64,000 nt of DNA from NCBI GenBank assembly GCA_964354935.1, contig CAYHBT010000001.1:10751-74750 (forward strand), read 5' to 3'. This document shows, piece after piece, positions 7,597 to 62,205 of this stretch. Below the pieces are notes generated by a model that worked only from the letters and a program-made list of their open reading frames with translations, searched no databases and was not told where the DNA came from. The DNA comes from an uncultured Candidatus Saccharibacteria bacterium. Its GTDB lineage: Bacteria; Patescibacteriota; Minisyncoccia; Phycocordibacterales; UBA9973. Position 1 is the stretch's first letter, and each line of letters opens with the position of its first letter. Position numbers and translations under genes: made by a program.

Positions 7597-9429
7597 ATGA
7601 AATTAGAAAATATAAGAAATTTTTCAATCATCGCGCACATAGACCACGGCAAAAGCACCTTGGCTGATAGAATGTTGGAAATCACGCATACAGTCGAAGC
7701 GCGAAAAATGCGTGATCAAGTGCTAGATTCTATGGAGCTTGAACGCGAACGCGGGATTACTATAAAAATGCAACCCGTAAGAATGGAATACGCAGTAGGT
7801 GCCGAAAAATACATTTTAAATCTCATCGATACCCCAGGGCATGTGGATTTCTCTTATGAAGTTTCTCGCGCTCTAAAGGCTGTAGAGGGTTCTATTTTAC
7901 TGGTTGATTCCACACAGGGAGTGCAGGCGCAGACACTCACCACGCTCGCTATGGCTCGCGGAGACAGTCTTGAGGGAGAGAGGAAGATTATTCCGGTGAT
8001 TTCCAAAATAGATTCGCCACTGGCTAGAATATCTGAAGTAAAAGAAGAGGTTGTAAAACTTTTAGGTTGCGATGAAAGCGAGATACTTTTAGTGTCGGGG
8101 CGTACAGGAGAAGGAGTCGAGAATCTTTTACAGGAAATAATAAAACGCGTTCCAGCGCCACCCTCCTCCCCTCATGAAGGGGAGGAGGGTGGGGTGGTGG
8201 GGGTGTTGCGCGCTTTGATTTTTGATTTCAAATATTCCAATCACCGAGGCGTGATAGTTTTTGTGCGAGTTCTTGATGGTAATGTTAAAAAAGGCGACAA
8301 TCTGCTATTTGCAGTTTCTGGTGAAAAATTTACCGCGCTTGAAGTGGGAACTTTCTCGCCAGAAGAAACCGCCCGTGAATCTCTTTCTTCGGGGGAAATC
8401 GGTTATATTGTCACTGGCATAAAAAAACCCGGTATCGCTTCGGTTGGAGACACAATTACTAAATTATCCAATCCTTTGCCTGCGCTTTCTGGATATATGC
8501 AGCCTATGCCGGTGGTCTGGGCGAGTGTCTTTCCGGAAGACGCCGATGATTTTGCTTTGCTTAAACTTTCTTTGGGCAAGCTTAAACTTTCTGATTCATC
8601 TTTCTCTTTTGAAGAAGAATCCTCGGGATCTTTGGGTAGAGGATTTCGTTGCGGATTTCTCGGAATGCTCCACTTGGAAATTATCACCGAAAGGCTTAAG
8701 CGAGAGTTTAATTTAAACTTGGTGATTACGACTCCTTCTATTATCTATGAAGTGGAAAACAATCAAGGGAAAAAAGAAAAAATTTATTCTCCCTATTTTT
8801 TTCCGGACGATGGAAATATAAAAGTCGTATTCGAACCTTGGGTGCACGCTCGCATCATTACACCTTCTCAATATTTGGGCAATATTATGCAAATTTTATT
8901 TGATCACGAAGCCGAAATCGGAGAAACCGAAAATTTCGGGGATAATCGCTCATCTATATCAGTCAGAATGCCTCTGCGTGAATTAATGCGTAATTTTTTC
9001 GATGAATTAAAAAGCACTTCTTCCGGCTATGGATCGATATCATATGAAATGGCGGAAATGCGCGAAGCGGATGTCACTCGGCTCGATATACTGGTGGCAG
9101 ACGAAGTCGTCCCTGCGTTTTCTAAAGTTATTTCCAAAAAAAGAGCTGAAGTTGAGGCGGAAAGTTCTGTTTTGAAATTGGAAAGTTTGCTGCCTCGACA
9201 GATGTTTACTCTCAAAATTCAAGGCAAGGCATTTGGGCGTATTATTTCTTCACGCACACTTTCTGGTATGAAAAAAGATGTTACTGCTCATATGTACGGA
9301 GGCGACATCACTCGTAAAATGAAACTTCGCGAAAAACAAAAGAAAGGTAAAAAGAAAATGAAAGAGCGTGGAAGAGTGAATATTCCGCAAGATGTATTCT
9401 TGAAAATGATGCGCAACGGAGAGAACTAG
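7597..9429 (+). CDS. lepA: elongation factor 4 (LepA)
   Basis: N-terminus IRNFSIIAHIDHGKSTLADR with GTPase motifs. Full LepA domain order. Contains an in-frame 15-bp palindrome encoding PPSSPHEGEEGG. Confidence 0.9.
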   Translation: MKLENIRNFSIIAHIDHGKSTLADRMLEITHTVEARKMRDQVLDSMELERERGITIKMQPVRMEYAVGAEKYILNLIDTPGHVDFSYEVSRALKAVEGSILLVDSTQGVQAQTLTTLAMARGDSLEGERKIIPVISKIDSPLARISEVKEEVVKLLGCDESEILLVSGRTGEGVENLLQEIIKRVPAPPSSPHEGEEGGVVGVLRALIFDFKYSNHRGVIVFVRVLDGNVKKGDNLLFAVSGEKFTALEVGTFSPEETARESLSSGEIGYIVTGIKKPGIASVGDTITKLSNPLPALSGYMQPMPVVWASVFPEDADDFALLKLSLGKLKLSDSSFSFEEESSGSLGRGFRCGFLGMLHLEIITERLKREFNLNLVITTPSIIYEVENNQGKKEKIYSPYFFPDDGNIKVVFEPWVHARIITPSQYLGNIMQILFDHEAEIGETENFGDNRSSISVRMPLRELMRNFFDELKSTSSGYGSISYEMAEMREADVTRLDILVADEVVPAFSKVISKKRAEVEAESSVLKLESLLPRQMFTLKIQGKAFGRIISSRTLSGMKKDVTAHMYGGDITRKMKLREKQKKGKKKMKERGRVNIPQDVFLKMMRNGEN

Positions 9430-9430
9430 T

Positions 9431-9472
9431 AGTGAGAGCTTTAGGCTCTAGGGAGAGTCTAAAGCTCTCACT
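9431..9472 (+). terminator. perfect 14-bp inverted repeat hairpin after lepA (AGTGAGAGCTTTAG...CTAAAGCTCTCACT). Belongs to the cagagcctaaRgc palindrome family.
   Basis: Inverted repeat read directly from the sequence. Downstream of it is an AT-rich stretch. Confidence 0.5.
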
Positions 9473-11016: not shown

Positions 11017-12287
11017 TGAAACGCTGGATACAGAATTTTGAAGAATTAGCTACGACAGAAAATCGAAAATTGATTCTAAATATTGCCGAAGCGGGTCTGG
11101 AATCAATTGATACAGAAGCTGTAATATCAAATTCAGTCAAACTCCAGAATGATGTTTTAAACATTATGGGTGAGGACTTTGATTTATCTAAATTTAAAAA
11201 AGTAAAAGTTGTTGGTTTTGGCAAAGCTTCTATTGATGGAGCTCACGCCTTGGAAAAAATTTTGGGTTCAAAGATTACGGCTGGCGCTGTAGTTGGTTTA
11301 CACAAGGGCGATTCAAAATATATTGAAATTTTTGCTGGAACTCACCCTCGACCCAGCCAGACCAATGTCGATGCTGGAGAGAAAATATATGAAATAGTAA
11401 AAGATTCTGGGGCAGAAGATTTAATTATTGTTTTGGTTTCAGGAGGTGGTTCCGCCTTGCTGTGTTATTCAGACAATGAATGCGAAAATAATGTTGCACT
11501 CTATGATCAATTTTTAAAAGTGGGGGGAACCATAGGAGAAATTAATACAATAAGAAAACATCTTTCAATACTAAAAGGTGGCGGTTTGGCAAAAATTGCC
11601 TATCCTGCGACAGTTGTTGGTCTGATTTTTTCTGATATCCCTGGAGATCATTTTGAAGATGTGGCGTCCGGTCCGACTTATAAAGATAAAAGCACGACAG
11701 AAGATGCTCTTAAAATTATCAGCAAATATAATTTAAGCAAATTTGATTTACTGGAGACGCTCAAAGAAGATAAATATTTTGAAAAAGTTAAAAATTTTGT
11801 TTTAGTTTCAAATAAAACAGCTCTTTTGGCGATGGCTAAAAAATCCAATGAGCTTGGTCTTAAGCCAAACATCATTTCGACTGAAATGTATGATGAAGTC
11901 AAAAGCGCTCTCGTGAAAATTTTTGACGCTAAAGAAAATGACACAGTTGTTTTAGCCGCCGGCGAACCCAAGCTCGAGGTTAAAAAGAAAGGCGGTAGCG
12001 GTGGCAGGAGTCTCTTTATGGGGCTACAGGCTATCCAGATGGGGCTAGTAGATAAAGATTCTGTATTAATACCCCTAGCTTCTGATGGTATGGATAATAG
12101 CGACGCGGCGGGAGCAATAATAGACCAAAATACCTTGGATAAAATAAAAAACTCAGGTTTCGATACGCAAAAGCATTTAGACGACTTCGACGCTTATCCG
12201 GTTTTCCAAAATTCTAAAGACATCATTATGACCGGCCCCACCGGCGCCAATGTTTCTGATTTGATGATTTTGCTTACGAAGAAATAA
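11016..12287 (+). CDS. glycerate 2-kinase (MOFRL family)
   Basis: LVSGGGSALL and KVVGFGKAS motifs typical of MOFRL/GckA glycerate kinases. Confidence 0.7.
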   Translation: MKRWIQNFEELATTENRKLILNIAEAGLESIDTEAVISNSVKLQNDVLNIMGEDFDLSKFKKVKVVGFGKASIDGAHALEKILGSKITAGAVVGLHKGDSKYIEIFAGTHPRPSQTNVDAGEKIYEIVKDSGAEDLIIVLVSGGGSALLCYSDNECENNVALYDQFLKVGGTIGEINTIRKHLSILKGGGLAKIAYPATVVGLIFSDIPGDHFEDVASGPTYKDKSTTEDALKIISKYNLSKFDLLETLKEDKYFEKVKNFVLVSNKTALLAMAKKSNELGLKPNIISTEMYDEVKSALVKIFDAKENDTVVLAAGEPKLEVKKKGGSGGRSLFMGLQAIQMGLVDKDSVLIPLASDGMDNSDAAGAIIDQNTLDKIKNSGFDTQKHLDDFDAYPVFQNSKDIIMTGPTGANVSDLMILLTKK

Positions 12288-13030
12288 TGAAACTAATCAA
12301 TTTAAATCTTCAAGGAGGTGTTGTATATGGACCTCTGATAGAATTTGTAAAAAAATACTCACCTGATATTGATATTTTTTGTTTTCAAGAAGTATTTCAT
12401 AATGCGCTAATTACAAGACCGCTTTTAGGTAATGTCCGGCCGAATCTTTTTTCTGAACTTAAAGATATTCTTCCCAATTTTAATGGGTATTATGCTGTTC
12501 CGATAGAAAATGATGTCGGCGGGTTGGCGATATTTATAAAAAAATCTTTTATTGTTAATAAAGTTGATAATATCGTTATTTTTCCGGAATTGAATACGAC
12601 AGAAGATGAAAATGATGATAGTTATTTTTCTATGGGCAGAAATTTACAATATGTGGAATTTAGCTATTTAGAAAAAACGTATATCGTTTTTAATTTTCAT
12701 GGCATGTGGATTGCAAAAGGGAAAGCGGATACAGAGAAACGCATTCTGCAATCTGAGAAGATAAGGGAAATTTTTGATAAATTAAAAGGAGCTAGGATTT
12801 TATGTACAGACTTAAATGTTACACCAGATACCGAAAGTATAGCTATTTTAAGAAAAGGAAACAAGGATTTAGTTCAGGAATATGGAATAACCTCAACCAG
12901 AAGTTTATCCAAAGGAAGATCGGAAGTAGTTGATTATGTAATAGTTTCTCTGGAAGTAGAAGTTAAAAATTTTGAAACTCTAAAAGAAGAAGTTTCGGAT
13001 CATTTGCCGTTGTTTTTAGATTTTAAATAA
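12287..13030 (+). CDS. endonuclease/exonuclease/phosphatase (EEP) family protein
   Basis: CFQEV catalytic Glu, TDLN, and C-terminal SDHLPL motifs. Confidence 0.65.
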   Translation: MKLINLNLQGGVVYGPLIEFVKKYSPDIDIFCFQEVFHNALITRPLLGNVRPNLFSELKDILPNFNGYYAVPIENDVGGLAIFIKKSFIVNKVDNIVIFPELNTTEDENDDSYFSMGRNLQYVEFSYLEKTYIVFNFHGMWIAKGKADTEKRILQSEKIREIFDKLKGARILCTDLNVTPDTESIAILRKGNKDLVQEYGITSTRSLSKGRSEVVDYVIVSLEVEVKNFETLKEEVSDHLPLFLDFK

Positions 13031-13049
13031 ATATCTATCCTTTTCCCAC

Positions 13050-13105
13050 GTTTTCGCAAGAACTTTTCGCAAGAACCGTTTTCGCAAGAACCGTTCTTGC
13101 GAAAG
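13050..13105. repeat. REP cluster: three tandem ttttcgcaagaac units ending in the perfect palindrome ttcgcaagaaccgttcttgcgaa
   Basis: Palindrome read directly from the sequence. It is repeated at 13805..13830. Confidence 0.8.
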
Positions 13106-13130
13106 TCTGGATGTTTAGTATAATTAAAGA

Positions 13131-13799
13131 ATGTTTCGTAAAGATCCATTTCTAACTGGTGAATACTACCACTTGTACAACCGTGGCATAGACAAGCGGG
13201 TAATTTTTAAACTAAAAAGAGATTACGAAAGATTTATGATGCTTCTTTATCTTGCAAATTCAAATGACTCTTTCCGACTTGATGATATTTTAAATAAAGA
13301 ACATAAGACATTTAGTGAAGTTTTAATATTAGAGAGAGGTGAACCGCTCGTTTCCATTGGCGCATGGTGCTTGATGACAAATCATTTTCATCTTTTAATT
13401 AGGCAAGAAATTGATGGTGGGATTACTAAATTTATGAGAAAGTTGGGTGTAGGATATTCAATGTTTTTTAATATAAAATATCAGAGAACAGGATCTCTTT
13501 TTGGTGGACTATTTAAATCAAAATTAATTGGAACTGATGATAATTACATGAGACAGTTGCTTGGATATATTCACATCAATCCTCTTGAGATAGAATTTCC
13601 CGAATGGAAAAATCAGATTAAAAAATCTTCAGTTGATATGAAAAAATTTCTTGAATCTTATAGATATTCTAGTTACCAAGATTATCTTGGCAAAGATAGA
13701 GTTGAGAAAAATATAATCAACCCTAAAGCTTTCCCTGAGTATTTTGAGAATTCAAAAAAGTTTGAGGATTTTGTTGATAATTATTTTGTTGAAATTTAA
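13131..13799 (+). CDS. REP-associated tyrosine transposase (RAYT; IS200-like Y1 HUH transposase) copy 1
   Basis: GEYYHLYNRG, HUH motif NHFHLL, and catalytic-Tyr region YIHINPLE. Confidence 0.8.
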   Translation: MFRKDPFLTGEYYHLYNRGIDKRVIFKLKRDYERFMMLLYLANSNDSFRLDDILNKEHKTFSEVLILERGEPLVSIGAWCLMTNHFHLLIRQEIDGGITKFMRKLGVGYSMFFNIKYQRTGSLFGGLFKSKLIGTDDNYMRQLLGYIHINPLEIEFPEWKNQIKKSSVDMKKFLESYRYSSYQDYLGKDRVEKNIINPKAFPEYFENSKKFEDFVDNYFVEI

Positions 13800-13804
13800 C
13801 CGAC

Positions 13805-13830
13805 TTTCGCAAGAACCGTTCTTGCGAAAG
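13805..13830. repeat. REP palindrome tttcgcaagaaccgttcttgcgaaag (3' flank of RAYT-1)
   Basis: Same palindrome as at 13081..13103. Confidence 0.8.
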
Positions 13831-13836
13831 TTGCTA

Positions 13837-15006
13837 TTATCCTTTTCCTACGGCTTCTGAGATATTTTTGTAGCCGTCTTTTTGGAGGAGTTGCACTAAT
13901 CCTAAATTTATATCGCTGATTAGTTGCGGACCTTCGAAAATCATTCCAGTGATGAGCTGTACGAGTGAAGCACCGGATTTTATTTTTCTATACGCGTCTT
14001 CTGCGCTAGATATTCCGCCGACGCCGATGATTACAAACTTTCCGTTTGTTTTTTTGTAAATATATCTTATTAATTCATCAGAAAGATTATCCAATACTTT
14101 GCCCGAAAGTCCGCCTAATTCTGATACATTTTTATCTATAATGTTTTTGTTGTCGCGGCTTTTTGTTAAATTAGTGCAAATAAATCCATCGATTTTCCAT
14201 TTTTCTGCGGTCTCGATTATTTCGCCAATTTCTTTTTTATCTAGGTCCGGAGACATTTTTAGAAAAATGGGTTTATTTTTAGGGACGGACATAATTTTTT
14301 CAAGCAAAGCATTTAATTTTACGCCATCATTAAACGGTTGACCGCCGAAAGCGTTTGGACAGCTGATGTTGATAGTGAAATAATCACCGATATCAGCCAA
14401 AATTTTATAAGCCTTAAAATAATCTCCTATTGCATTTTCAAGATCGGCTGTTTCTTTGCAGTTGGTCTTGGCTATGCTTATCCCGACCGGAATAGAGAAT
14501 TTTTTATTTTTTAATCTTTCAGCGATTTTTTCACAGCCGTCGTTTGCAAGACCATAATAAACAGCCAACGATTTGGATTTTTTTAATCGCCAAAGACGAG
14601 GTCTTGGATTACCTCTGCAAGGTTCTCCTGTGATTGATCCGGCTTCCATAAAACCGAATCCAATTGCTGGCATAATTTCCGTCAATTCAGCATTTTTGTC
14701 AAAACCAGCCGAAAGACCAACGGGGTTTTTAAATTTAATTCCCAAAATCTTTTGCTCCAAAGCCGGATTAAAATAATTAAAGCAAGCGCGGGAAATAGCT
14801 CTCGTTGTCGCATATTTACCCCAAAAAATTAGAAAGGCAGACATCCAGTCGTGAACCAATTCCGGATCAAATTTAAAGAAAATGGGCTTAAAAATCCATT
14901 TATACTTCTTTTCGATTATGAAATTTCTGGCAACAATTAGCTTATCTTGCATATGTTTTAATGGTAGCAAAAATGTGGTAAAATAAAAAGCGCAATGGAA
15001 GAACAA
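13837..15006 (-). CDS. pyrD: dihydroorotate dehydrogenase, class 2-like (quinone-type) with an N-terminal extension
   Basis: GFGFMEAGSIT, NISCPN and GVGGISSAEDA motifs of a DHODH TIM barrel. About 70 aa of hydrophobic N-terminal extension. Confidence 0.8.
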   Translation of the reverse strand: MFFHCAFYFTTFLLPLKHMQDKLIVARNFIIEKKYKWIFKPIFFKFDPELVHDWMSAFLIFWGKYATTRAISRACFNYFNPALEQKILGIKFKNPVGLSAGFDKNAELTEIMPAIGFGFMEAGSITGEPCRGNPRPRLWRLKKSKSLAVYYGLANDGCEKIAERLKNKKFSIPVGISIAKTNCKETADLENAIGDYFKAYKILADIGDYFTINISCPNAFGGQPFNDGVKLNALLEKIMSVPKNKPIFLKMSPDLDKKEIGEIIETAEKWKIDGFICTNLTKSRDNKNIIDKNVSELGGLSGKVLDNLSDELIRYIYKKTNGKFVIIGVGGISSAEDAYRKIKSGASLVQLITGMIFEGPQLISDINLGLVQLLQKDGYKNISEAVGKG

Positions 15007-17095: not shown

Positions 17096-17108
17096 ATATT
17101 GTCCAACA

Positions 17109-17133
17109 TTGTCCAACACTCGGTGTTGGACAA
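17109..17133. repeat. REP palindrome ttgtccaacactcggtgttggacaa, with a tandem half-copy just upstream
   Basis: Perfect palindrome. Flanks RAYT-2. Confidence 0.8.
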
Positions 17134-17799
17134 TCAATTTATCCAATCTAATTCTTCCTTTAACAGTTTTGCCGAGCTTGTTTTCACAAATTCATCATAT
17201 TCGTTTTTATTTTTAAACTGTCCGTTGATTATAGCAGTAATCAATAATTCTTCAAATCTATTTTTATTTACACAATCTTGATAGCTTGACCAAGGGTAAA
17301 TATTTTCTTTATTCAGCCACTCTTTTAATTCTCTTGGATTTCTGTGGATATACGCAGACAGGTATAGAAGCTGATTATTATCTTTTACATGTACTGCTTT
17401 GTATGGTCCCTGAAATAGGTGTCCTGATTTGTGGTATTTTGTATTGTAATATTTTGTATAACTATTCAAAACTCTTTGCATATATCTAGCGATACCATTT
17501 TCTTCAACTTCCTTAACGATCAAGTGAAAATGGTTTGACATTAAACAAAAAGAGGTGAGTTCCACGAATCTACCTTTTACGATTTCTTTTTTGGTTTTTA
17601 TATCAATGTCAAACACTGAGTGTTGGACAAATGATTTTATCGAACGACCAATCTGTTGAAAAACAGTAGGGGATTGAAAGTATAAAATTAAAAACAAAAA
17701 TCTTATTCTATCCATGTTGTCGTGAAAGATTAATTGTTTACTCATTCCGCGATTAAAGATATGATAATACTCTCCCGGTGCTATTTTTATATTTCTCAT
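17134..17799 (-). CDS. REP-associated tyrosine transposase (RAYT) copy 2
   Basis: GEYYHIFNRG, MSNHFHLIV and YIHRNPRE motifs. Confidence 0.8.
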   Translation of the reverse strand: MRNIKIAPGEYYHIFNRGMSKQLIFHDNMDRIRFLFLILYFQSPTVFQQIGRSIKSFVQHSVFDIDIKTKKEIVKGRFVELTSFCLMSNHFHLIVKEVEENGIARYMQRVLNSYTKYYNTKYHKSGHLFQGPYKAVHVKDNNQLLYLSAYIHRNPRELKEWLNKENIYPWSSYQDCVNKNRFEELLITAIINGQFKNKNEYDEFVKTSSAKLLKEELDWIN

Positions 17800-17826
17800 A
17801 TTACTATTATATAACTTTATTTCTAA

Positions 17827-17851
17827 CTGTCCAACACTCGGTGTCGGACAG
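17827..17851. repeat. REP palindrome ctgtccaacactcggtgtcggacag (other flank of RAYT-2)
   Basis: Near-perfect palindrome. Same family as the one at 17109. Confidence 0.75.
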
Positions 17852-17994
17852 TTGCAGGGTTAAAGGAGAATGTGATAAAATTAAAATATGTCAAAACAAG
17901 ATGAATTTCCAAAGTCACAAGGAGCTGATAATACAAAAGAAGGTATAATGGCTAGAAAGGCAAGATTGTTGCAAGAGCAGAGAGAGAGAGAAGA

Positions 17995-28041: not shown

Positions 28042-29289
28042 TTAGCTTTTTTCTTGTATTCGTTCAAGCGCCAATATGAAAGCTCCCATGCGGAGCGAGG
28101 TTTTTGATTCTCGAGCTTTTTGGGAAACTTTTTTAGCCGCCGATTCCATAATCTTTTTTAATTTTTCAAAAACTGCTTTTTCCGTCCAATGTTCGCTTTT
28201 TAAATTTTGTTCCCATTCAAAATAGGATACGGTGACGCCTCCGGAATTCGCTAAAATATCCGGTATAACAGAAATGCCTTTTTTAAATAAAATTTCATCG
28301 GCTTCCGGCGTGATGGGGCCGTTTGCGAGTTCTAAAATAGCTTTAGCTTTTATTTTATTCGCGTTCTTTTCGGTGATGACATTTTCAAAAGCGGCAGGCA
28401 CCAAGAGATCACAGGGGAGTTCGAGCAATTCCTCATTTGTTATATTTTCCGCTTCCGGAAAATTTTTCAAACCGCCCGTTGTTTTTTTGTAAGCTTCAAC
28501 TTTTTTCAAATCCAGACCGTCTTTTTTAAAAATTGCGCTATGTGAGTCAGAGACAGCTATTACAGTATGTCCATTTTCAGCAAAAATACGCGCCGCATTT
28601 CCGCCGACATTTCCAAATCCCTGAATCGCTACTTTACATTTTTGCGGTTTTCGCGGAAGCCTTGCTTCCGCGCGGAGAGCTTCAAAGACATAAAATCCAC
28701 CGAGCCCAGTCGCAGGACCTCGGCCTTCTGAACCCTGCCCGCCCTGTGGCGTGGCTCCTTTTTCGACAGGTTTGCCGGTAAATGTGGCGCCTGTCCGGTC
28801 GCCGGTTATCTTGGAGTATTCATCTACCATATAAGCCATTATTTCTCCGTTGGTATTTACATCCGGAGCTGGCACATCTTTGTAGGGTCCCAAAACATCG
28901 GCAAGACCCTGCACCCACCCACGCGAAAGTCTTTCTAGTTCATCTTTAGACAAATCTTTTGGGTCAACTGTGATTCCACCCTTGCCTCCGCCCATCGGAA
29001 TTCCGACAACCGCGCATTTGAGGGTCATCCAAAATGCGAGCGCTTTCACTTCATTTATTTCGGTGTCTGGATGATATCTGATTCCGCCTTTATAAGGTCC
29101 GAGAGCGTTGTTGTATTGCACGCGGTAACCCGAAAAAATTTTCACAGACCCATCGTCCATTTTGATAGGAATAGAAATTCTAATATCGCGATTGGGTTCG
29201 CGTAGGTGCGTGATGAAATCGTTCCCGAAATTCTTAATTTTGGCGACTTTGTCGAGTTGCGCCATTGCGTTTTGAAAAGGATTTTGCAT
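28042..29289 (-). CDS. gdhA: glutamate dehydrogenase (Glu/Leu/Phe/Val dehydrogenase family)
   Basis: GGGKGG region, QGFGNVGG Rossmann motif, plus a low-complexity Gly-rich insertion. Confidence 0.85.
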   Translation of the reverse strand: MQNPFQNAMAQLDKVAKIKNFGNDFITHLREPNRDIRISIPIKMDDGSVKIFSGYRVQYNNALGPYKGGIRYHPDTEINEVKALAFWMTLKCAVVGIPMGGGKGGITVDPKDLSKDELERLSRGWVQGLADVLGPYKDVPAPDVNTNGEIMAYMVDEYSKITGDRTGATFTGKPVEKGATPQGGQGSEGRGPATGLGGFYVFEALRAEARLPRKPQKCKVAIQGFGNVGGNAARIFAENGHTVIAVSDSHSAIFKKDGLDLKKVEAYKKTTGGLKNFPEAENITNEELLELPCDLLVPAAFENVITEKNANKIKAKAILELANGPITPEADEILFKKGISVIPDILANSGGVTVSYFEWEQNLKSEHWTEKAVFEKLKKIMESAAKKVSQKARESKTSLRMGAFILALERIQEKS

Positions 29290-34392: not shown

Positions 34393-35361
34393 CTATTTCG
34401 TATTCAACGCAAGATAAATATCTTCGAGCGCGCGGACGGCATCGCCGGCGGCGATGTTGTTTTGATGATAGAGGACATCGGTGCAATCTCCGGCCGCCCA
34501 GATGCCTTGTGTCTGCGTCTTTTGCGTTTTAGGGTCTATTATTACTCTGCCTATTTCGTCGAGCGGAACGATGTCCTTAGCAAAACCGGTGTTTGGGATT
34601 TGCCCTATCTCCACAAAAATACCGGCGACAAGAAGCTCCACGATTTCTCCGGTCGTTTTATTTTTGTAGATAATGCCTTCCACGAATTTATCGCCTTTCA
34701 CTTCCAAAATGTCGACATTTTTAACCGCTTTCATTTTTGGATTTTTCAAAACTTTTTCTACCGTAATTTCATCGGCGCGGAAAGACTCGCTTCGATGTAA
34801 GAGGGTCACAGACTTGCAGTAAGCGAGGAGCTGGGAAGCGCTTTCAAATCCGGCGTTGCCTCCACCGATCACGACGACGTCTTGCCCTTCAAATAGAGGT
34901 CCGTCACAAGAAGCGCAATAGGTGAGGCCTTTATGTTCCAGTCTGTCCGCATTTTTCGCTTCCAACTTTCTGCGTCCGCTACCTGTCGCTATTAAAATAG
35001 TTTTTGTCTCAAATTCTTGACCGGATTCCGTCTTAACTAAGAAAACAGAGCCTAAAGCTCTGTTGAGTAGAGCTTTAGGCTCTGGAGGCACCATCTTTAC
35101 TGAAATTACTTTTTCACCCTCTTTCACTTCTAATGTTTGTCCGGCTCCGGCGTTTGCAAGCACATGTGTTTTTAAATTTTCCGCGAGTTCATTGCCGGAG
35201 AGGGAAGTCGTCCCGATCCAGTTGTATATTTTTTCAGACACGACAGACTGCCCGCCCCATTCGGCAGTGACGAAAAGGGTCTGTAGTCTTTTGCGAGAAG
35301 CATAGACTGCTGCCGCCGCTCCAGCCGGCCCGCCTCCGATGATTGTTAAATCGTAAATCAT
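34393..35361 (-). CDS. trxB: thioredoxin reductase
   Basis: IIGGGPAGAAAA, CASCDGPLF redox-active disulfide, and a second NAD(P)-binding GGGNAG motif. Contains an in-frame palindrome encoding PEPKALLNRALGS. Confidence 0.9.
   Translation of the reverse strand: MIYDLTIIGGGPAGAAAAVYASRKRLQTLFVTAEWGGQSVVSEKIYNWIGTTSLSGNELAENLKTHVLANAGAGQTLEVKEGEKVISVKMVPPEPKALLNRALGSVFLVKTESGQEFETKTILIATGSGRRKLEAKNADRLEHKGLTYCASCDGPLFEGQDVVVIGGGNAGFESASQLLAYCKSVTLLHRSESFRADEITVEKVLKNPKMKAVKNVDILEVKGDKFVEGIIYKNKTTGEIVELLVAGIFVEIGQIPNTGFAKDIVPLDEIGRVIIDPKTQKTQTQGIWAAGDCTDVLYHQNNIAAGDAVRALEDIYLALNTK
35045..35084. repeat. perfect 16-bp palindrome CAGAGCCTAAAGCTCT..AGAGCTTTAGGCTCTG, in-frame inside trxB
   Basis: Same family as the hairpins at 9431..9472 and 45716..45757. 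Confidence 0.8.
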
Positions 35362-38828: not shown

Positions 38829-39189
38829 ATTTTTTTTCCGCTCTCTCCATTGTACTACTATGTTCGAGACCTTTCAAATGCAACATTCCGTGGATAACTA
38901 AGAATCCCAAGAACTGTTCGAAATTTTTGGAAAAATTCTTCGCTTCTCTTTTAATAACTGCGGGGCATAAAATTAGCTCCCCTTTATTTTTAAGCAAAGC
39001 AAAAGACAAGACATTGGTGGATTTATCTTTGTTGCGATATTTTTTATTTATCTCACGAGATTGCTTTTCATTCACAAAAGCAATCGAGAGAGAATATTTC
39101 TTTCCTAAAATATCATTCTTAATCTCAACAAAAGGCAGGCTTGGAAGCTTGCCTTTTGTTTTATTTATTAGAGAAAAATCTTCTTCCAT
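38737..39189 (-). CDS. ybeY: rRNA maturation endoribonuclease YbeY
   Basis: HGMLHLKGLEH zinc-binding motif. Its C-terminal tail overlaps the start of ftsA. Confidence 0.8.
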   Translation of the reverse strand: MEEDFSLINKTKGKLPSLPFVEIKNDILGKKYSLSIAFVNEKQSREINKKYRNKDKSTNVLSFALLKNKGELILCPAVIKREAKNFSKNFEQFLGFLVIHGMLHLKGLEHSSTMERAEKKYDTKYFSRNRRWLHLDESRGGRVSKRRKKS

Positions 39190-44013: not shown

Positions 44014-45715
44014 TCTCATTTGGCGATCTAAAATTATTTTATTTTGCTTTATAATTTTTAGTTTGGTTTTGATATCCAAACTTTTTTTGGTGCAGGTGGT
44101 GCGTGGTAGCGATTATTCCGAATTGGCGGATCGTCAGTATTCCACTCCTTCTCCAAATATCTATGAACGCGGAACTATTTTTTTTCAAAGTAAGGACGGA
44201 CAACTCATTTCGGCTGCCACCCAGACTACCGGATTCAAAATTGCCATCAATCCAAGCAAAATTTCTGATGTGGAAAGTGTTTTTCAGAGACTTTCTAAAA
44301 TAATAAAATTAGACCAAGTCGATTTCATTTCTAAAGCTGGCAAAAAAAATGATCCATACGAAGAGATTGCCTTTCATCTTTCCAAGGAAGAGGCGGACGC
44401 GGTATCCAACTTGAAAATTTCTGGTCTGAGTATTTTTAAGGAAAAATGGCGTTTTTACCCTGGTGGATCTTTGGCTTCTCATACGCTCGGTTTGGTGGGG
44501 TATAAAGATGCCGAGCTCGGAGGACGCTACGGTCTCGAGAGATTTTACAACGACGAGCTTCTGCGCACCAACGACAATCTGTATGTAAATTTTTTTGCTG
44601 AAGTTTTTTCCGATATAAATCGCACCCTATTCAGCGGAGGAATCAAAGAAGGTGATATCGTGACGACCATTGAGCCGACTGTTCAAAATTTTTTAGAGAA
44701 AAAATTAGAAGAAGTGAAAGAAAAATATCAGGTGGATTCGATTGGCGGGATCATTATGAATCCGATTGATGGTTCGATTTATGCTATGGGCGTGAAGCCG
44801 GATTTTAATCCAAACGATTTTTCTCAAGTCAAAAAGACTTCTACCTTTTCTAACCCTTTAGTGGAGAATGTTTTAGAATTCGGCTCCGTCGTAAAACCAC
44901 TGGTGATGGCTTCCGCGCTTGATGCCGGCGTCGTCACTCCCGCTACTACCTATAACGACAAGGGATCAGTGATAGTTGAAAAAAAAGAAATTTTTAATTT
45001 TGATAAAAAAGGCAGAGGTCCGGAGACGACAATGCAGGAAGTACTCAATCAATCTCTCAATACCGGAATGGTTTTCGTGGAACAAAAACTCGGCAAAGAA
45101 AAATTTAAAGATTACTTGCTTTCATATGGCATTAAAGAAAAAACTGGAATTGATTTACCAAACGAAACTAGGGGGTTGGTAGCCAATTTAAATAGTCCGC
45201 GTGAAATAGAATATGCAAACGCTGCTTTTGGTCAAGGTATAGCTTTGACGCCTATGGAGATGATTCGAGCGCTTGCTTCACTTTCAAATGGAGGAAATTT
45301 GGTTGTGCCTCATATTGCCAAAGAAATACTCTATGAAAGCGGTGGTTCAAAAAAAATCACTTATCCTGTGACTCGCGCAAAAATAAGCAAAGAAACATCC
45401 GAGGTGATAACCGGAATGTTGGTGGAGGTGATGGATAAAGCCATTAAAAGCGGTGCGGGAAAATTAGAGCATTTTAATGTGGCAGTAAAAACCGGCACAG
45501 CGCAGGTTGCAGACAACACCACGGGGGGATACTATGAAGATAGACATACTCATTCATTTGTGGGATATTTCCCAGCTTATGATCCGAAATTTATTGTTTT
45601 TCTGTATGCAGTAAATCCAAAGGGGGTGCCGTATGCCGCGACGACTTGGTCTGATCCGTTTTTAGATATCACCAAGTTTTTATTGAATTATTATGAAATT
45701 TCACCGGACAGATAA
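44003..45715 (+). CDS. ftsI: peptidoglycan D,D-transpeptidase FtsI (class B PBP)
   Basis: SVVKP (SxxK), SLN and KTGTA motifs. N-terminal TM anchor. Confidence 0.85.
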   Translation: MASSLIWRSKIILFCFIIFSLVLISKLFLVQVVRGSDYSELADRQYSTPSPNIYERGTIFFQSKDGQLISAATQTTGFKIAINPSKISDVESVFQRLSKIIKLDQVDFISKAGKKNDPYEEIAFHLSKEEADAVSNLKISGLSIFKEKWRFYPGGSLASHTLGLVGYKDAELGGRYGLERFYNDELLRTNDNLYVNFFAEVFSDINRTLFSGGIKEGDIVTTIEPTVQNFLEKKLEEVKEKYQVDSIGGIIMNPIDGSIYAMGVKPDFNPNDFSQVKKTSTFSNPLVENVLEFGSVVKPLVMASALDAGVVTPATTYNDKGSVIVEKKEIFNFDKKGRGPETTMQEVLNQSLNTGMVFVEQKLGKEKFKDYLLSYGIKEKTGIDLPNETRGLVANLNSPREIEYANAAFGQGIALTPMEMIRALASLSNGGNLVVPHIAKEILYESGGSKKITYPVTRAKISKETSEVITGMLVEVMDKAIKSGAGKLEHFNVAVKTGTAQVADNTTGGYYEDRHTHSFVGYFPAYDPKFIVFLYAVNPKGVPYAATTWSDPFLDITKFLLNYYEISPDR

Positions 45716-45757
45716 ACAGAGCCTAAGGCACTGGCTAGCCAGTGCCTTAGGCTCTGT
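45716..45757 (+). terminator. perfect 19-bp palindrome ACAGAGCCTAAGGCACTGG..CCAGTGCCTTAGGCTCTGT after ftsI
   Basis: Same family as the palindromes at 9431 and 35045. Confidence 0.5.
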
Positions 45758-47352: not shown

Positions 47353-48651
47353 TTAAGCGTTGCTTCCAGCAATGTATCCCGTCGTCCAGCAGAGCTGAAG
47401 AGAAAATCCTCCGCTCGGGCGGTTTATGTGTAATAGGTCTCCAGTGATAAAGAGATTTTCAAAAATTTTCGACCGCATTGTTTTCGTGTCGATTTCCGCC
47501 AAATCTACTCCGCCGTCGGCGACCACCGCTCTATCGAAACCCATAAGTCCGGTGATGGTTGCAGGTAGAGCTTTCAAAAGAGAAATTAAGCGCTTGCGGG
47601 ATTCTCGCGAAAGGCTATGGATTTTGGTTTCGGTATCTAAATCTTTCAAGAGAGACAAAATTGCTTTTGCTGTGCCATTTGGCAAAAGTTCAGGCAAAAT
47701 ATTTTTAAACATTTTATTTTTATTATCATCAAAAAGTTTCAATATTTTTTTCTCTAGCCTAGATTCGTCATTCTCCGGAAAAAGATCGATTTTTGCAGTG
47801 ACGGCTCCTTCTTCGAGCAAGTCGGCGATTTTTCCGGCAGAGTTTAATATGAGCGGACCAGAAAGACCGAAGTGAGTGAATAAAAGTTTACCCGTTTTAG
47901 AAAATTTTTTCTTGCCGTTTACGCAGAAAGTGATTTTCATGTTTGGAACAGAAATGCCGGATAGAGATTTTATCCATTCATCTTCGACTTTTATCGGCAC
48001 AATTGTCGGAGTGGGGGATTTTACAGTATGACCCAAATTTTTGAGCCAATTAAATCCATCTCCTGTCGAGCCTGTTTCGGGGTGTGAATTGCCTCCGGTT
48101 GCCAATATGTATGAATGAGCGGTGTATGTGTCGTTGCCGGATTGGATACCAGTAATTACCCCCACCTTGCCTCCCCCTACATAGGGGGAGGTGCCGAAGG
48201 CGGAGGGGGTATGAGAGGTCAGTATTTTTTTCACCGCCGAATTTGTTTTTATCATTACTCCTAAACTTTTCAAATCTTTTTCCAAAACCTTAAAAACATC
48301 AAAAGCTTTTTCTGTTTTCGGGAAGGCTCTTTTGCGCGCCTGCACAACAAGGGGTAGACCTCTCTTTTCAAAATATTCAAATGTCTCTTTTACTCCAAAC
48401 TGCGCGAAAGAAGAATACAAAAACTGCTCGGCTTCTCCGTAATTTTTTAATAGCGCACGGGTATCATATTCAGCATTGGTGATGTTGCATCTGCCTCCGC
48501 CGGTGATTTTTAGTTTTTTCCCAAGCTCGCGATTTTTCTCTATTAGCAACACTTTTTTGCCGTTTTGCGCGCTACAAGCGGCCGCCATCATTCCAGACGC
48601 TCCTCCGCCGATTACAATTACATCAAAATCATTTTCAGGGTTTTTATGCAT
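47353..48651 (-). CDS. HI0933/BaiN-like FAD-dependent oxidoreductase
   Basis: DVIVIGGGASGMMAA FAD-binding motif and a GGGRCNITN motif. Contains a GC-rich in-frame palindrome at 48170..48191. Confidence 0.75.
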   Translation of the reverse strand: MHKNPENDFDVIVIGGGASGMMAAACSAQNGKKVLLIEKNRELGKKLKITGGGRCNITNAEYDTRALLKNYGEAEQFLYSSFAQFGVKETFEYFEKRGLPLVVQARKRAFPKTEKAFDVFKVLEKDLKSLGVMIKTNSAVKKILTSHTPSAFGTSPYVGGGKVGVITGIQSGNDTYTAHSYILATGGNSHPETGSTGDGFNWLKNLGHTVKSPTPTIVPIKVEDEWIKSLSGISVPNMKITFCVNGKKKFSKTGKLLFTHFGLSGPLILNSAGKIADLLEEGAVTAKIDLFPENDESRLEKKILKLFDDNKNKMFKNILPELLPNGTAKAILSLLKDLDTETKIHSLSRESRKRLISLLKALPATITGLMGFDRAVVADGGVDLAEIDTKTMRSKIFENLFITGDLLHINRPSGGFSLQLCWTTGYIAGSNA

Positions 48652-56627: not shown

Positions 56628-58058
56628 ATGGCGAACAAATATTACCCCACAATTGGACTAGAGATTCACGCAGAATTAAAGACGGAAACCAAGATGTTTT
56701 GTGGTTGCAGGAATAATCCTGATGAGGAGAAGCCGAACACTAATATTTGTCCGGTTTGTATGGCGCATCCGGGGGCTTTGCCGGTTTTAAACAAGAAAGC
56801 CATAAAGAATGTTATCAAAGTTGGCTTGGCGGTCGGCGGCAAGATTGCAGACTTCACAGAATTTGACCGAAAAAATTATTTTTATCCGGACATCCCGAAA
56901 GGTTATCAGATTTCGCAGTACAAATATCCGATAGTTTCTGGTGGAAATTTGGCGGGCATAGACATCACTCGAGTGCATTTAGAAGAAGATACAGCGAATA
57001 ATAAACATGACAGGGGAGACTTCTCTTTGATTGATTTCAACCGTTCCGGCGTGCCGCTTATGGAGCTTGTGACTGAAGCGCATACTTTTGAAAGTGCAGA
57101 GGAGACAGCTAAGACAGCCTCAAAATTTGCCAAAGAGCTTCAGCTTATACTTTGGTACTTGGGTGTGTCTGAAGCGAATATGGAGAAAGGCGAAATGCGA
57201 GTGGAAGCGAATATTTCTGTTTCCACTGACCCCAAAAAATTAAGCACAAAAGTGGAAGTAAAAAATTTGAACTCTTTCAAGAGTGTGGAAAAAGCAATCA
57301 AGTTTGAGATAGATAGAATGATAGAACTTCATGAAAGCGGCAAAGCGTCGGAAATAGTGCAGGAGACGCGCGGCTGGGACGAATCAAAGCAGAAAACTTT
57401 TTCGCAGAGAAAAAAAGAGGGGAGTGCGGACTATCGATATTTTCCTGAGCCGGATTTACCGAAGCTGTATTTGCATAAGGCTTTCGATTTAGAAAAAATA
57501 AAAAAAGAATTGCCGGAATTACCGGAGGCAAAACGCGCACGATATAAAAAAGATTTTGGAATAAAAGAAGAAGATATAGAGGTTTACATAAATGATCCTG
57601 AACTGGGCGCATGGTTTGAAGAAGCGGCGAAGATTTTGAAAGATAAAGAAAAAATAAAAATAGCATCAAATTATATTACGACAGACTATATGGGTCTCAA
57701 AAAAGCCCACTTGGCGGTTAAACCGCCAAGTGTTGGGAATTTCGCTGAATTAATAAATTTGGTGGCAGAAAATAAAATTTCTTCACGAGTAGCGAAAGAT
57801 ATCTTGGCGATGATTGTTGTAAGCGATGAATCGCCGCTTAAAATTGCAACAGAAAAAAATCTTCTACAAAGTAGCGACACAGGTGAACTTAAAAAAATTG
57901 CTCAAAAAATTATCGATGCCAATCCGAAAGTTGTGGCAGACTACAAAGGCGGTAAAGAACAGGCCACAATGTCCTTGGTTGGACAAATAATGAAAGAAAC
58001 CAAAGGCTCGGCGAATCCGGCGGTGACGAAGCAAATATTAGTTGAACTTCTAAAATAA
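56628..58058 (+). CDS. gatB: aspartyl/glutamyl-tRNA amidotransferase subunit B
   Basis: YPTIGLEIHAEL and CGCRNNPDE N-terminal region. C-terminal YqeY-like domain. Confidence 0.9.
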   Translation: MANKYYPTIGLEIHAELKTETKMFCGCRNNPDEEKPNTNICPVCMAHPGALPVLNKKAIKNVIKVGLAVGGKIADFTEFDRKNYFYPDIPKGYQISQYKYPIVSGGNLAGIDITRVHLEEDTANNKHDRGDFSLIDFNRSGVPLMELVTEAHTFESAEETAKTASKFAKELQLILWYLGVSEANMEKGEMRVEANISVSTDPKKLSTKVEVKNLNSFKSVEKAIKFEIDRMIELHESGKASEIVQETRGWDESKQKTFSQRKKEGSADYRYFPEPDLPKLYLHKAFDLEKIKKELPELPEAKRARYKKDFGIKEEDIEVYINDPELGAWFEEAAKILKDKEKIKIASNYITTDYMGLKKAHLAVKPPSVGNFAELINLVAENKISSRVAKDILAMIVVSDESPLKIATEKNLLQSSDTGELKKIAQKIIDANPKVVADYKGGKEQATMSLVGQIMKETKGSANPAVTKQILVELLK

Positions 58059-61423: not shown

Positions 61424-61449
61424 CTGCGTTAGGTCTTGCCTAACGCAAG
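61424..61449. repeat. REP3 palindrome ctgcgttaggtcttgcctaacgcaag
   Basis: Perfect palindrome. The listed RAYT-3 ATG lies inside it. Confidence 0.8.
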
Positions 61450-62143
61450 GGTTATTTGGTATTATATTAATATGTCTATTCGGAAAGTGAACTTAGTTCA
61501 AGGTGAGTATTATCACATTTACAATCGCGGCAATAGTAAACAGAAAATTTTCCACGACAAGGAGGATTATTTAAGATTCATTTCTTTGCTTTATATTTCA
61601 AATACAAGCGAAAGTTTTAATCTTTACGATTTAAGCAGAGATCCTAATTTTAATATTTACGAGTTAGAAAGGAATAATCTTTTGGTTAACATAGGAGCAC
61701 ATTGTCTGATGCCAAATCATTTTCATATATTGATGACCGAAATATCAGAAGGAGGAATAAGTAAATTTATGCAAAAACTAGGTACTGCTTATTCTATGTA
61801 TTACAACACAAAGTACGAAAGAACTGGCGGGTTGTTTGAGGGCAAGTTTAAAGCTCAACACGCAAGTACAGATCGACATTTAAAATATTTATTTTCTTAT
61901 ATACATTTAAATCCAGTAAAGCTTATTCAAAGAGATTGGAAAGAGAAAGGGATTAAAAATAAAAGAGAAGCGATAGACTATCTGATTAAATATACTTATT
62001 CAAGCTACCTAGATTTTATGGGGGACAAGCGAGTTCAAAATAAAATATTAAATTTAGAATCATTCCCAAATTACTTCCCTAACAAGACTTCATTTAACGA
62101 AGAAATTTTTGAGTGGCTTAGCTTTCAGGAAGAATTGCGTTAG
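61436..62143 (+). CDS. REP-associated tyrosine transposase (RAYT) copy 3 (probable start MSIRKVN at 61473)
   Basis: GEYYHIYNRG, MPNHFHILM and YIHLNPVK motifs. Confidence 0.8.
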   Translation: MPNARVIWYYINMSIRKVNLVQGEYYHIYNRGNSKQKIFHDKEDYLRFISLLYISNTSESFNLYDLSRDPNFNIYELERNNLLVNIGAHCLMPNHFHILMTEISEGGISKFMQKLGTAYSMYYNTKYERTGGLFEGKFKAQHASTDRHLKYLFSYIHLNPVKLIQRDWKEKGIKNKREAIDYLIKYTYSSYLDFMGDKRVQNKILNLESFPNYFPNKTSFNEEIFEWLSFQEELR

Positions 62144-62169
62144 GCAAGACCTAACGCAACCTAACGCAA
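62135..62169. repeat. REP3 palindrome ttgcgttaggcaagacctaacgcaa plus a cctaacgcaa half-copy. Overlaps the RAYT-3 stop codon.
   Basis: Perfect palindrome in inverted orientation relative to 61424. Confidence 0.8.
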
Positions 62170-62205
62170 TTTGCATTTTAATTTTTTTTCTGTATACTTG
62201 AATTT

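Follow-up and report, generated by a model that had tools for sequence, protein, structure and literature searches.

Introduction

Repetitive extragenic palindromes (REP sequences) and their REP-associated tyrosine transposases (RAYT) make up the systems known as REP/REPIN-RAYT or "REPtrons" (PMC2817692, PMC3116915, PMC3337134, PMC8266576). In these, short palindromic units lie scattered, mostly immediately outside genes, inverted doublets of the unit (REPIN) form one long hairpin, and a single-copy Y1/HUH transposase gene stands in a syntenic position with cognate hairpins on both sides. In classical REPs the hairpin foot is marked by a conserved tetranucleotide, GTAG or CGTC (PMC3733652, PMC8266576). 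Here we describe a family of short palindromes, family A, found in 64,000 nucleotides of DNA from an uncultured Candidatus Saccharibacteria bacterium (GCA_964354935.1, contig CAYHBT010000001.1, positions 10,751 to 74,750; this whole stretch is called the window). One copy lies in frame within a trxB gene, and two others follow lepA and ftsI. We argue, at a probability of about three in four, that family A is a REP/REPIN-RAYT-like system of Nomurabacteria-type Patescibacteria, with coding insertions like those of Rickettsia. The genomes of the Candidate Phyla Radiation (CPR), of 0.5-1 Mb, are generally regarded as almost devoid of repeats, and to our knowledge no REP-like system has been described in Patescibacteria; a text search of the open-access literature found no reports of REPs in this group.

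Palindromic repeats that are read in frame within genes provide a second comparison. The Rickettsia palindromic elements (RPEs) of 100-150 bp are said to lie in frame in genes, and were reportedly described by Ogata et al. in 2000; we know of no cognate transposase for them. RPEs are mentioned in PMC1779305 and PMC10969869, and in Coxiella MITEs (miniature transposable elements with inverted repeats) occur within proteins (PMC5896051). The coding palindromes of nematomorph mitochondria reach 284 bp, and both of their arms encode conserved protein sequence (PMC6649704).

Three palindromes of one family

The window has a G+C content of about 38% and contains three near-perfect palindromes that have the motif AGAGCCTAARGC in common (Table 1), at the places where an earlier note on this DNA had put them. 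Allowing up to one mismatch, the motif has six matches in the window against 0.49 expected, a number reached in none of 100 shuffles, and all six are the paired arms of these three palindromes. The perfect 16-bp palindrome that the note read in frame in trxB was likewise found as described, within an intact open reading frame (ORF). Its sequence is the same in three independent assemblies (L001-L003; L-numbers are labels of loci or stretches from other assemblies, with coordinates internal to each), and it is therefore not an assembly artefact. The copy after lepA starts 1 nt past the lepA stop codon (9427-9429). Its two arm types come in the opposite order to those of the trxB and ftsI copies, and the lepA-like order is seen again at L098 7416-7452. 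The copy after ftsI directly abuts the stop codon of the FtsI-type penicillin-binding protein (45713-45715) and ends 9 nt ahead of the murF ATG (45767).

Every family-A arm is itself a small palindrome (AGAGC-N5-GCTCT), forming a 15-bp near-palindrome, and in the three window copies the centres of the two arms are spaced 19-23 bp apart. The single-hairpin unit has the consensus CAGATAGSGCCT-N-AGGCSCTATCTG, present in the window in a shorter ACAGAGCCTAARGC form. Dispersed copies are inverted doublets of this unit with a spacer of 0-8 nt, 39-46 nt long in all, and they fold as one long perfect hairpin in the manner of REPINs. The window copies belong to the shorter ACAGAGCC subtype, and the canonical outer stem AGATAGMGCCT was matched in the window at chance level only. 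Scanned against Rfam at gathering thresholds, the window yielded seven tRNAs and no other known RNA family.

When one genome per GTDB species was scanned for the pattern, 118 stretches were among the matches listed, to which the counts that follow also refer; the genome of the window is not among the matches listed. Roughly 95 of these are one-off hairpins from unrelated phyla. Family A occupies at least 25 sites in at least eight Patescibacteria metagenome-assembled genomes (MAGs), with at least nine sites in H52-bin032_1, at least five in Nomurabacteria RIFCSPHIGHO2_01_FULL_39_10 and at least four in AlinenSediments_bin-3871. The grouping of the three copies as one family, made by the earlier note, is upheld by this abundance of further members in related genomes. 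Nearly all of the 25 Patescibacteria sites fit one consensus of about 44 nt, (C)AGAT-AGAGCCTTAGACTCT-(2-6 nt)-AGAGTCTAAGGCTCT-ATCT(G), and L023 and L072 have the subtype of the ftsI copy.

In most intergenic copies a long ORF terminates within the element or has its stop codon 0-3 nt from the edge. The canonical element has stops in all three frames, while variants with a 5-nt loop are open, and such open variants are found in frame in several genes (Table 1). The 1-3 bases just outside the AGAT..ATCT core were compared among copies in L007, L011, L020, L030, L046, L059, L063, L098 and L120. They vary from copy to copy, while left and right are always complementary (CC..GG, AC..GT, GT..AC, TC..GA). 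No direct target-site duplication was found at the family-A copies, the flanking bases being inverted complements. Such flanks would be consistent with an element that inserts at the middle of small palindromes already present, or with a palindrome that grows outwards. A MITE, with terminal inverted repeats and a direct target duplication, was considered and rejected, as the flanks of the core are inverted and not direct.

Transposase genes with cognate hairpins

The association with a transposase is seen in related genomes. In L120, positions 6500-7105 encode an IS200-like protein (Pfam Y1_Tnp, 33.4 bits against a cut-off of 23); this RAYT-like gene is preceded at a distance of 18 nt by a family-A hairpin, CCCCAGATAGGGCCT-a-AGGCCCTATCTGGGG, and has another, TCAGATAGGGCCT-a-AGGCCCTATCTGA, in frame within it at residue 57. 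In L208 the identical hairpin CAGATAGCGCCT-N-AGGCGCTATCTG is present ahead of the start, within the gene (where it is perfect) and across the stop. In L209 a variant, CAGATAGCGC-tttag-GCGCTATCTG, is found before the start and across the stop, with an imperfect internal copy. The L208 and L209 genes are syntenic, both lying between a sigma-like gene and DUF8128/yceG. The family-A unit brackets a single-copy RAYT-like Y1 gene in all three of these genomes, which is the arrangement of REP-RAYT loci.

Homologues of the L120-type protein number 3624 at E <= 1e-10. Among the best 120 of these 3624, the named ones come from Nomurabacteria/Paceibacterota and bear the IMG label "REP element-mobilizing transposase RayT", and nearly all of the 120 keep the internal peptide QI[AEG][PS]KALSE, which is the translated family-A hairpin. 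In the examined loci all 12 of the 12 full-length homologues, including three in the window, have a cognate hairpin at an end of the ORF, against a background density of 0.325 such hairpins per kb.

The three homologues in the window were identified by tblastn, and each is flanked by a different hairpin family (Table 1), so that as in REP-RAYT systems several paralogous transposase/hairpin pairs occur in one genome. The product of the first gene matches the family-A RAYT of L120 (tblastn E = 1.5e-35) and scores 24.5 bits for Pfam Y1_Tnp against the cut-off of 23; the upstream hairpins at 13052-13104 comprise three tandem TTTCGCAAGAAC half-sites. The second has an imperfect copy of its own TGTCCAACAC family within the ORF, around 17611-17636. 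The TTTCGCAAGAAC and TGTCCAACAC families also fill the trxB loop in other species. The RAYT-like proteins are about 200-245 aa long, score 24.5-37.3 bits for Y1_Tnp and contain the HFH (HUH-type) and Y-I-H-x-N-P motifs. A sequence search of the PDB with a RAYT-like protein of the window found no relative.

Cognate hairpins also lie in frame inside these genes (Table 1), a feature that sets them apart from REP-RAYT systems and of which we know of no description in a RAYT-type gene. The internal hairpin is placed ahead of the HUH motif in one clade and past it in another, and it matches the flanking copies lineage by lineage. This match suggests co-evolution, and possibly autoregulation.

The insertion in trxB

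The host gene encodes a low-molecular-weight flavoprotein of the thioredoxin-reductase (TrxR) or AhpF-C-like type, which scores under the NCBIfam cut-offs for both. The proteins closest to it belong to Candidatus Nomurabacteria, Paceibacterota and further Patescibacteria. The window's organism is a Patescibacterium of Nomurabacteria/Paceibacteria type. The palindrome is translated in frame as (P)EPKALLNRALGS(V), residues 93-106, and relative to the 11-aa basal loop of the orthologues it adds 12 aa, and not the 15 or so of the earlier estimate. Alignment with solved AhpF structures leaves a gap across this segment. The copy is a genuine lineage-specific in-frame insertion, which the solved AhpF/TrxR homologues and most close orthologues do not have, and the coding insertion of the earlier note stands. 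In an AlphaFold2 model (mean predicted local distance difference test score, pLDDT, 79.6) the insert forms the tip of a β-hairpin, flanked by strands 85-91 and 106-111, with pLDDT below 50 at residues 96-102. By this model it occupies a surface loop position.

The same loop was compared in the DNA of 82 trxB loci and in the loop sequences of the 120 closest protein clusters, extracted on the basis of tblastn and MAFFT. A basal loop of 11 residues (xxIxKNxEGFx), free of palindromes, is present in roughly 50 of the 82 loci and in 34 of the 120 protein clusters; the non-basal orthologues have loops of 14-26 residues. A perfect palindrome (stem 12-25 bp) lies exactly at the loop in 14 of the 82 loci, and also in the separately retrieved L207. 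These palindromes fall into at least six unrelated sequence families, A-F (Table 1). Single-unit hairpins occur at the same site in L205 (family E, with the doublet in L134) and in L136 (family F, with the doublet in L207). The long loops that have no palindrome look like decayed remnants, as in L151 and L177 for family D. In a neighbour-joining tree of TrxB minus the loop, members with the various hairpin families are mingled with members whose site is empty; its star-like shape does not allow the independent gains to be counted, and it shows interspersion only.

Families B, C and F at the trxB loop are the same hairpins that flank RAYT-like genes elsewhere. In particular, L131 has in its trxB loop the B-type hairpin sequence that flanks the RAYT-like genes in L183 and L152.

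The trxB-loop insertions resemble RPEs and the Coxiella MITEs in that a palindromic repeat lies in frame in a housekeeping gene without breaking the ORF, in their surface-exposed position, and in a later decay to ordinary loop sequence. Family A differs from RPEs in its length of 39-46 nt and in having no sequence relation to them (the comparison being with RPEs as described), in the presence of at least six families in the same protein loop, and in its arms, which stay perfect.

Symmetry of the arms

The arms of eight family-A copies, five from trxB loops and three intergenic, were aligned. Standard pairs make up 95.8% of the arm cells, and shuffled and slid controls score far lower. Of the 18 arm pairs, six carry changes in both partners and none in a single partner, and G.U intermediates are absent. 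For example, all four half-sites differ between the window and L005 by the change of AGAGC/GCTCT to AGCGC/GCGCT. Symmetry as strictly Watson-Crick as this speaks for a process at the DNA level or for recent copying, since selection at the RNA level would tolerate G.U pairs.

There is a parallel here with the nematomorph palindromes (PMC6649704), which are also perfect inverted repeats in functional coding sequence, dynamically gained and lost between species. In both cases the arms are perfect or nearly so, with no excess of imperfect intermediates, which suggests active conversion of one arm by the other. The nematomorph palindromes, unlike family A, do not form dispersed families and have no link to a transposase (PMC6649704).

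Interpretation

On the basis of these observations, we propose that the transposase acts on the hairpin in single-stranded DNA, recognising it and disseminating copies. Copies would persist where they do little harm, mostly at the extreme 3' ends of genes, where they abut or supply the stop codon. Rarely, a length variant with an open frame would persist within a gene at a surface loop. The trxB copy may be such a survivor, lengthening the tip of a β-hairpin by 12 residues, merely translated and presumably neutral. The symmetry of the arms would be kept at the DNA level, one arm being copied from the other by template switching or conversion, or else would reflect a recent origin; RNA-level selection would not be its explanation. 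Effects of intergenic copies on transcripts, such as a 3'-end hairpin or partial termination, would be secondary.

Family A does not belong in the strict sense to the classical GTAG-tagged REP families, but it most likely works like them. Its units and spacers are much shorter than those of REPs, and its arms are perfect. Its copies regularly supply stop codons or lie in frame in host genes, as REPs do not. REPs number tens to hundreds per genome, compared with three family-A copies in 64 kb, or about one site per 20 kb.

Several points weigh against this interpretation. The low copy number is one of them, together with the mutual divergence of the three copies. The transposases are divergent from RAYT: the sole NCBIfam match of the window proteins is REP_Tyr_transpos (NF047646, an equivalog model), at 25-39 bits under a cut-off of 80. 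Neither a family-A RAYT-like gene nor the syntenic sigma-like/DUF8128/YceG locus was found in the 64-kb window, so that for this genome the link of family A to a transposase rests on its relatives. No GTAG or CGTC tag is conserved at the foot of the hairpin, where the flanks vary (CC, AC, GT, GC, TC, CG etc.), and the GTAG beside the lepA copy derives from the TAG-TAG stop region only; the GTAG- and CGTC-tagged REP superfamilies were rejected for family A for want of the tag. No presence/absence polymorphism was seen among three assemblies of the window's organism. Finally, the trxB loop and the ftsI-murF spacer remain occupied across species, which also fits old, vertically inherited hairpins that are kept for a function.

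A bolder form of the proposal is possible, although we regard it as speculative and would sooner bet against it. Here, in bacteria of ultra-small size, RAYT-type transposases and their hairpins would repeatedly write peptide-coding hairpins into host proteins at hot spots defined by structure. The trxB tip and the ftsI-murF spacer would be integration sites, at which hairpins of any family could insert into or replace existing ones (nested insertion). The internal hairpin of the RAYT-like genes, whose changes parallel those of the flanking copies, would be functional, in autoregulation or as a master template.

Alternative explanations

An alternative that we consider improbable is that the hairpins are mainly signals at the RNA level, namely terminators, attenuators or 3'-end stabilisers after lepA and ftsI, with the trxB copy as an internal attenuator when translation is uncoupled from transcription. 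The predicted RNA hairpins are indeed very stable, at -30.2 kcal/mol (z = -3.55) for the trxB copy, -36.3 kcal/mol (z = -6.1) for lepA and -38.5 kcal/mol (z = -8.6) for ftsI, and like intrinsic terminators the elements place a G+C-containing stem-loop right after a stop codon. Single-unit relatives with A and T tracts, such as L127 4008-4036, resemble bidirectional terminators.

The outcome of the terminator scans differs from copy to copy. On the + strand the lepA copy resembles a terminator weakly, its T-rich tail AATGTTATTT being weak in a consensus scan. The ftsI copy, within the ftsI-murF pair and just before the co-oriented murF, lacks a sense-direction T-tract and resembles a terminator only on the antisense strand. 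The earlier note had both copies acting as terminators; the idea survives in weak form for lepA, and not for ftsI. The best sense fit to a hairpin plus U-tract is the coding trxB copy (tail TTTTCTTAGT), which is terminator-like because the conserved VFLV codons that follow it are T-rich. Termination is therefore not a shared property of family A, and the U-tract is not a conserved part of the element.

Nor is the hairpin a constant feature of the ftsI-murF junction. In the 15 loci where this could be compared, FtsI always ends in PPDR-stop. The spacer is filled by family A in the window, L005/L101, L007 and L131, and by a CCCCTCTCC-type palindrome in L158 and L127; in 8 of the 15 it is empty and 2-31 nt long. 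The same sequences moreover flank transposase genes and occur within other coding genes, and RNA-level selection would not produce arms without one-sided changes or G.U intermediates. Transcript-level side effects of family-A hairpins are nevertheless possible.

It is very unlikely that the palindromes arise in place, template switching at replication producing perfect inverted repeats and doublets with nothing moving between sites. Such a process would account for the perfect arms and their two-sided covariation, for the occurrence of single-unit and doublet forms at the same trxB site, and for bases outside the core that vary while both ends stay complementary. The examined CPR loci (959 kb) contain 146 perfect hairpins (stem >=12 bp, G+C >=25%), where a first-order Markov simulation gave one, and the idea of arm conversion has been put forward for the nematomorph coding palindromes (PMC6649704). 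It leaves unexplained why near-identical 44-nt copies with one consensus occur at many unlinked loci in different species, and why trxB-loop sequences match the hairpins flanking RAYT-like genes elsewhere. Template switching probably contributes to keeping the arms perfect, and does not explain the origin of the family.

Least credible of all is that the repeats are bound by some non-transposase protein of the host, such as a regulator, a nucleoid protein or a receptor for DNA uptake, at two adjacent 15-bp palindromic half-sites: the near-palindromic arms, their regular spacing and a consensus kept across species are what it would predict, but at least six unrelated sequence families share the architecture and the sites, so that structure matters and not one recognition sequence, complementarity runs past the 15-mers through spacers and flanks, and every motif in the window is an arm of an inverted pair at a density unlike that of uptake sequences. 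A DNA-uptake sequence or operator was rejected on the same grounds, namely the inverted pairing of all window motifs and the unrelated families of the same architecture.

Table 1. Positions and properties of the palindromes, their host and transposase genes, and the hairpin families at the trxB loop. Positions are those of the window unless a locus label is given.
Feature	Position	Strand	Description
Family-A palindrome after lepA	9431..9472	+	19-nt arms, 95% complementary, single G.T mismatch
Family-A palindrome in trxB	35046..35084	-	16-nt perfect arms CAGAGCCTAAAGCTCT / AGAGCTTTAGGCTCTG, 7-nt loop
Family-A palindrome after ftsI	45716..45757	+	42 nt, perfect; fills the spacer from the FtsI-type PBP stop to murF
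trxB host gene, low-molecular-weight thioredoxin-reductase / AhpF-C-like flavoprotein	34393..35361	-	intact ORF, 322 aa, CASC redox motif
RAYT-like Y1 (HUH) transposase gene	13131..13799	+	TTTCGCAAGAAC hairpins (family F) upstream 13052-13104 and downstream 13803-13831
RAYT-like Y1 gene	17134..17799	-	TGTCCAACAC hairpins (family C) at 3' end 17098-17134 and upstream of start, about 17824-17852
RAYT-like Y1 gene	61436..62143	+	TTGCGTTAGG hairpins at start 61425-61447 and stop 62133-62171
In-frame cognate hairpins inside RAYT-like genes	L120 6670-6696; L208 10169-10193; L142 7417-7441; L159 3602-3626; L186 730-754 (coordinates on the + strand of each locus)	+	
In-frame cognate hairpin inside RAYT-like gene	L157 16667-16685 of the reverse strand		about 4267-4285 on the + strand
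In-frame open variants of family A	L018; L038, L104; L113		HolB-like gene (L018), PaaX-like (L038, L104), PurL-like (L113)
Family A at trxB loop	window, L005, L126, L128/L072, L137		core AGMGCCTAARGC, peptide PKAL..ALG
Family B at trxB loop	L130, L131, L141, L154		core GCGGAAGC-CTT-GCTTCCGC, peptide EALL..SKAS
Family C at trxB loop	L138, L168, L170		core GTGTTGGACAC, peptide GVGH..CPT
Family D at trxB loop	L179		core TCGGACGTTGGACGTCCGA, peptide DVGRP..
Family E at trxB loop	L134		core AGCGGTTGAACCGCT, peptide VEPLG..SGST
Family F at trxB loop	L207		core AAGAACSGTTCTT, peptide RTVL..RTVL

Other hairpins and elements

Further perfect palindromes were noted in genes of the window. One lies within lepA at 8158-8192, with 15-nt arms CCACCCTCCTCCCCT / AGGGGAGGAGGGTGG read in frame as PPSSPHEGEEGG; it forms an 8-residue insertion relative to Thermus EF4, in the linker of domains I and II. 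In-frame perfect hairpins are also present in the housekeeping genes gdh (28651-28673), for an HI0933-like flavoprotein (48170-48191) and gatB (57708-57732). That of gdh is a single family-B unit, CGCGGAAGC-CTT-GCTTCCGCG. L001, L002 and the window do not differ in this gene, the lengths of 415 and 407 aa reflecting only the called start. The tsaD gene of L004 has two perfect palindromes, at 11698-11722 and 12111-12157, one with 23-nt arms and the other of the CCCCTCTCC type, which suggests that this clade commonly carries in-frame palindromes.

A recurrent hairpin, ACAAAAGGCAAGCT..AGCTTGCCTTTTGT, is found in the window at 39127-39160, near greA/ybeY, and in L153, L164, L179, L188, L190, L191, L201 and L204. 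It is terminator-like on the + strand in the window, and may be a conserved terminator or RNA element.

In L004, from a related Hainich groundwater genome, a reverse transcriptase gene (RVT_1) adjoins a bAvd gene at 12579-14003 (also in L006, 8839-10261); together these are probably a diversity-generating retroelement. The pattern scan returned at least three matches in Staphylococcus lugdunensis among those listed, and an identical 40-nt hairpin, aataAGAGCCTAAATCGAATATTCGATTTAGGCTCTtatt, in at least eight species-level MAGs (L008, L022, L043, L047, L049, L055, L065 and L111). The hosts of the latter are gut MAGs, mostly labelled Clostridia, Eubacteriales or Candidatus Gallimonas. It is unrelated to the CPR family, and clearly a conserved element in its own right.

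Significance

For annotation, hairpins of this kind can supply stop codons, lengthen loops and mimic terminators. One enzyme loop with at least six hairpin families, sampled in basal, fresh and decayed states, makes the choice of target, the survival of the frame and the upkeep of the arms testable. If the interpretation is true, it would provide a second, independent and far more compact case, after the Rickettsia RPEs, of palindromic repeats that shape protein loops, and it would extend the REP/REPIN-RAYT systems to the Candidate Phyla Radiation.

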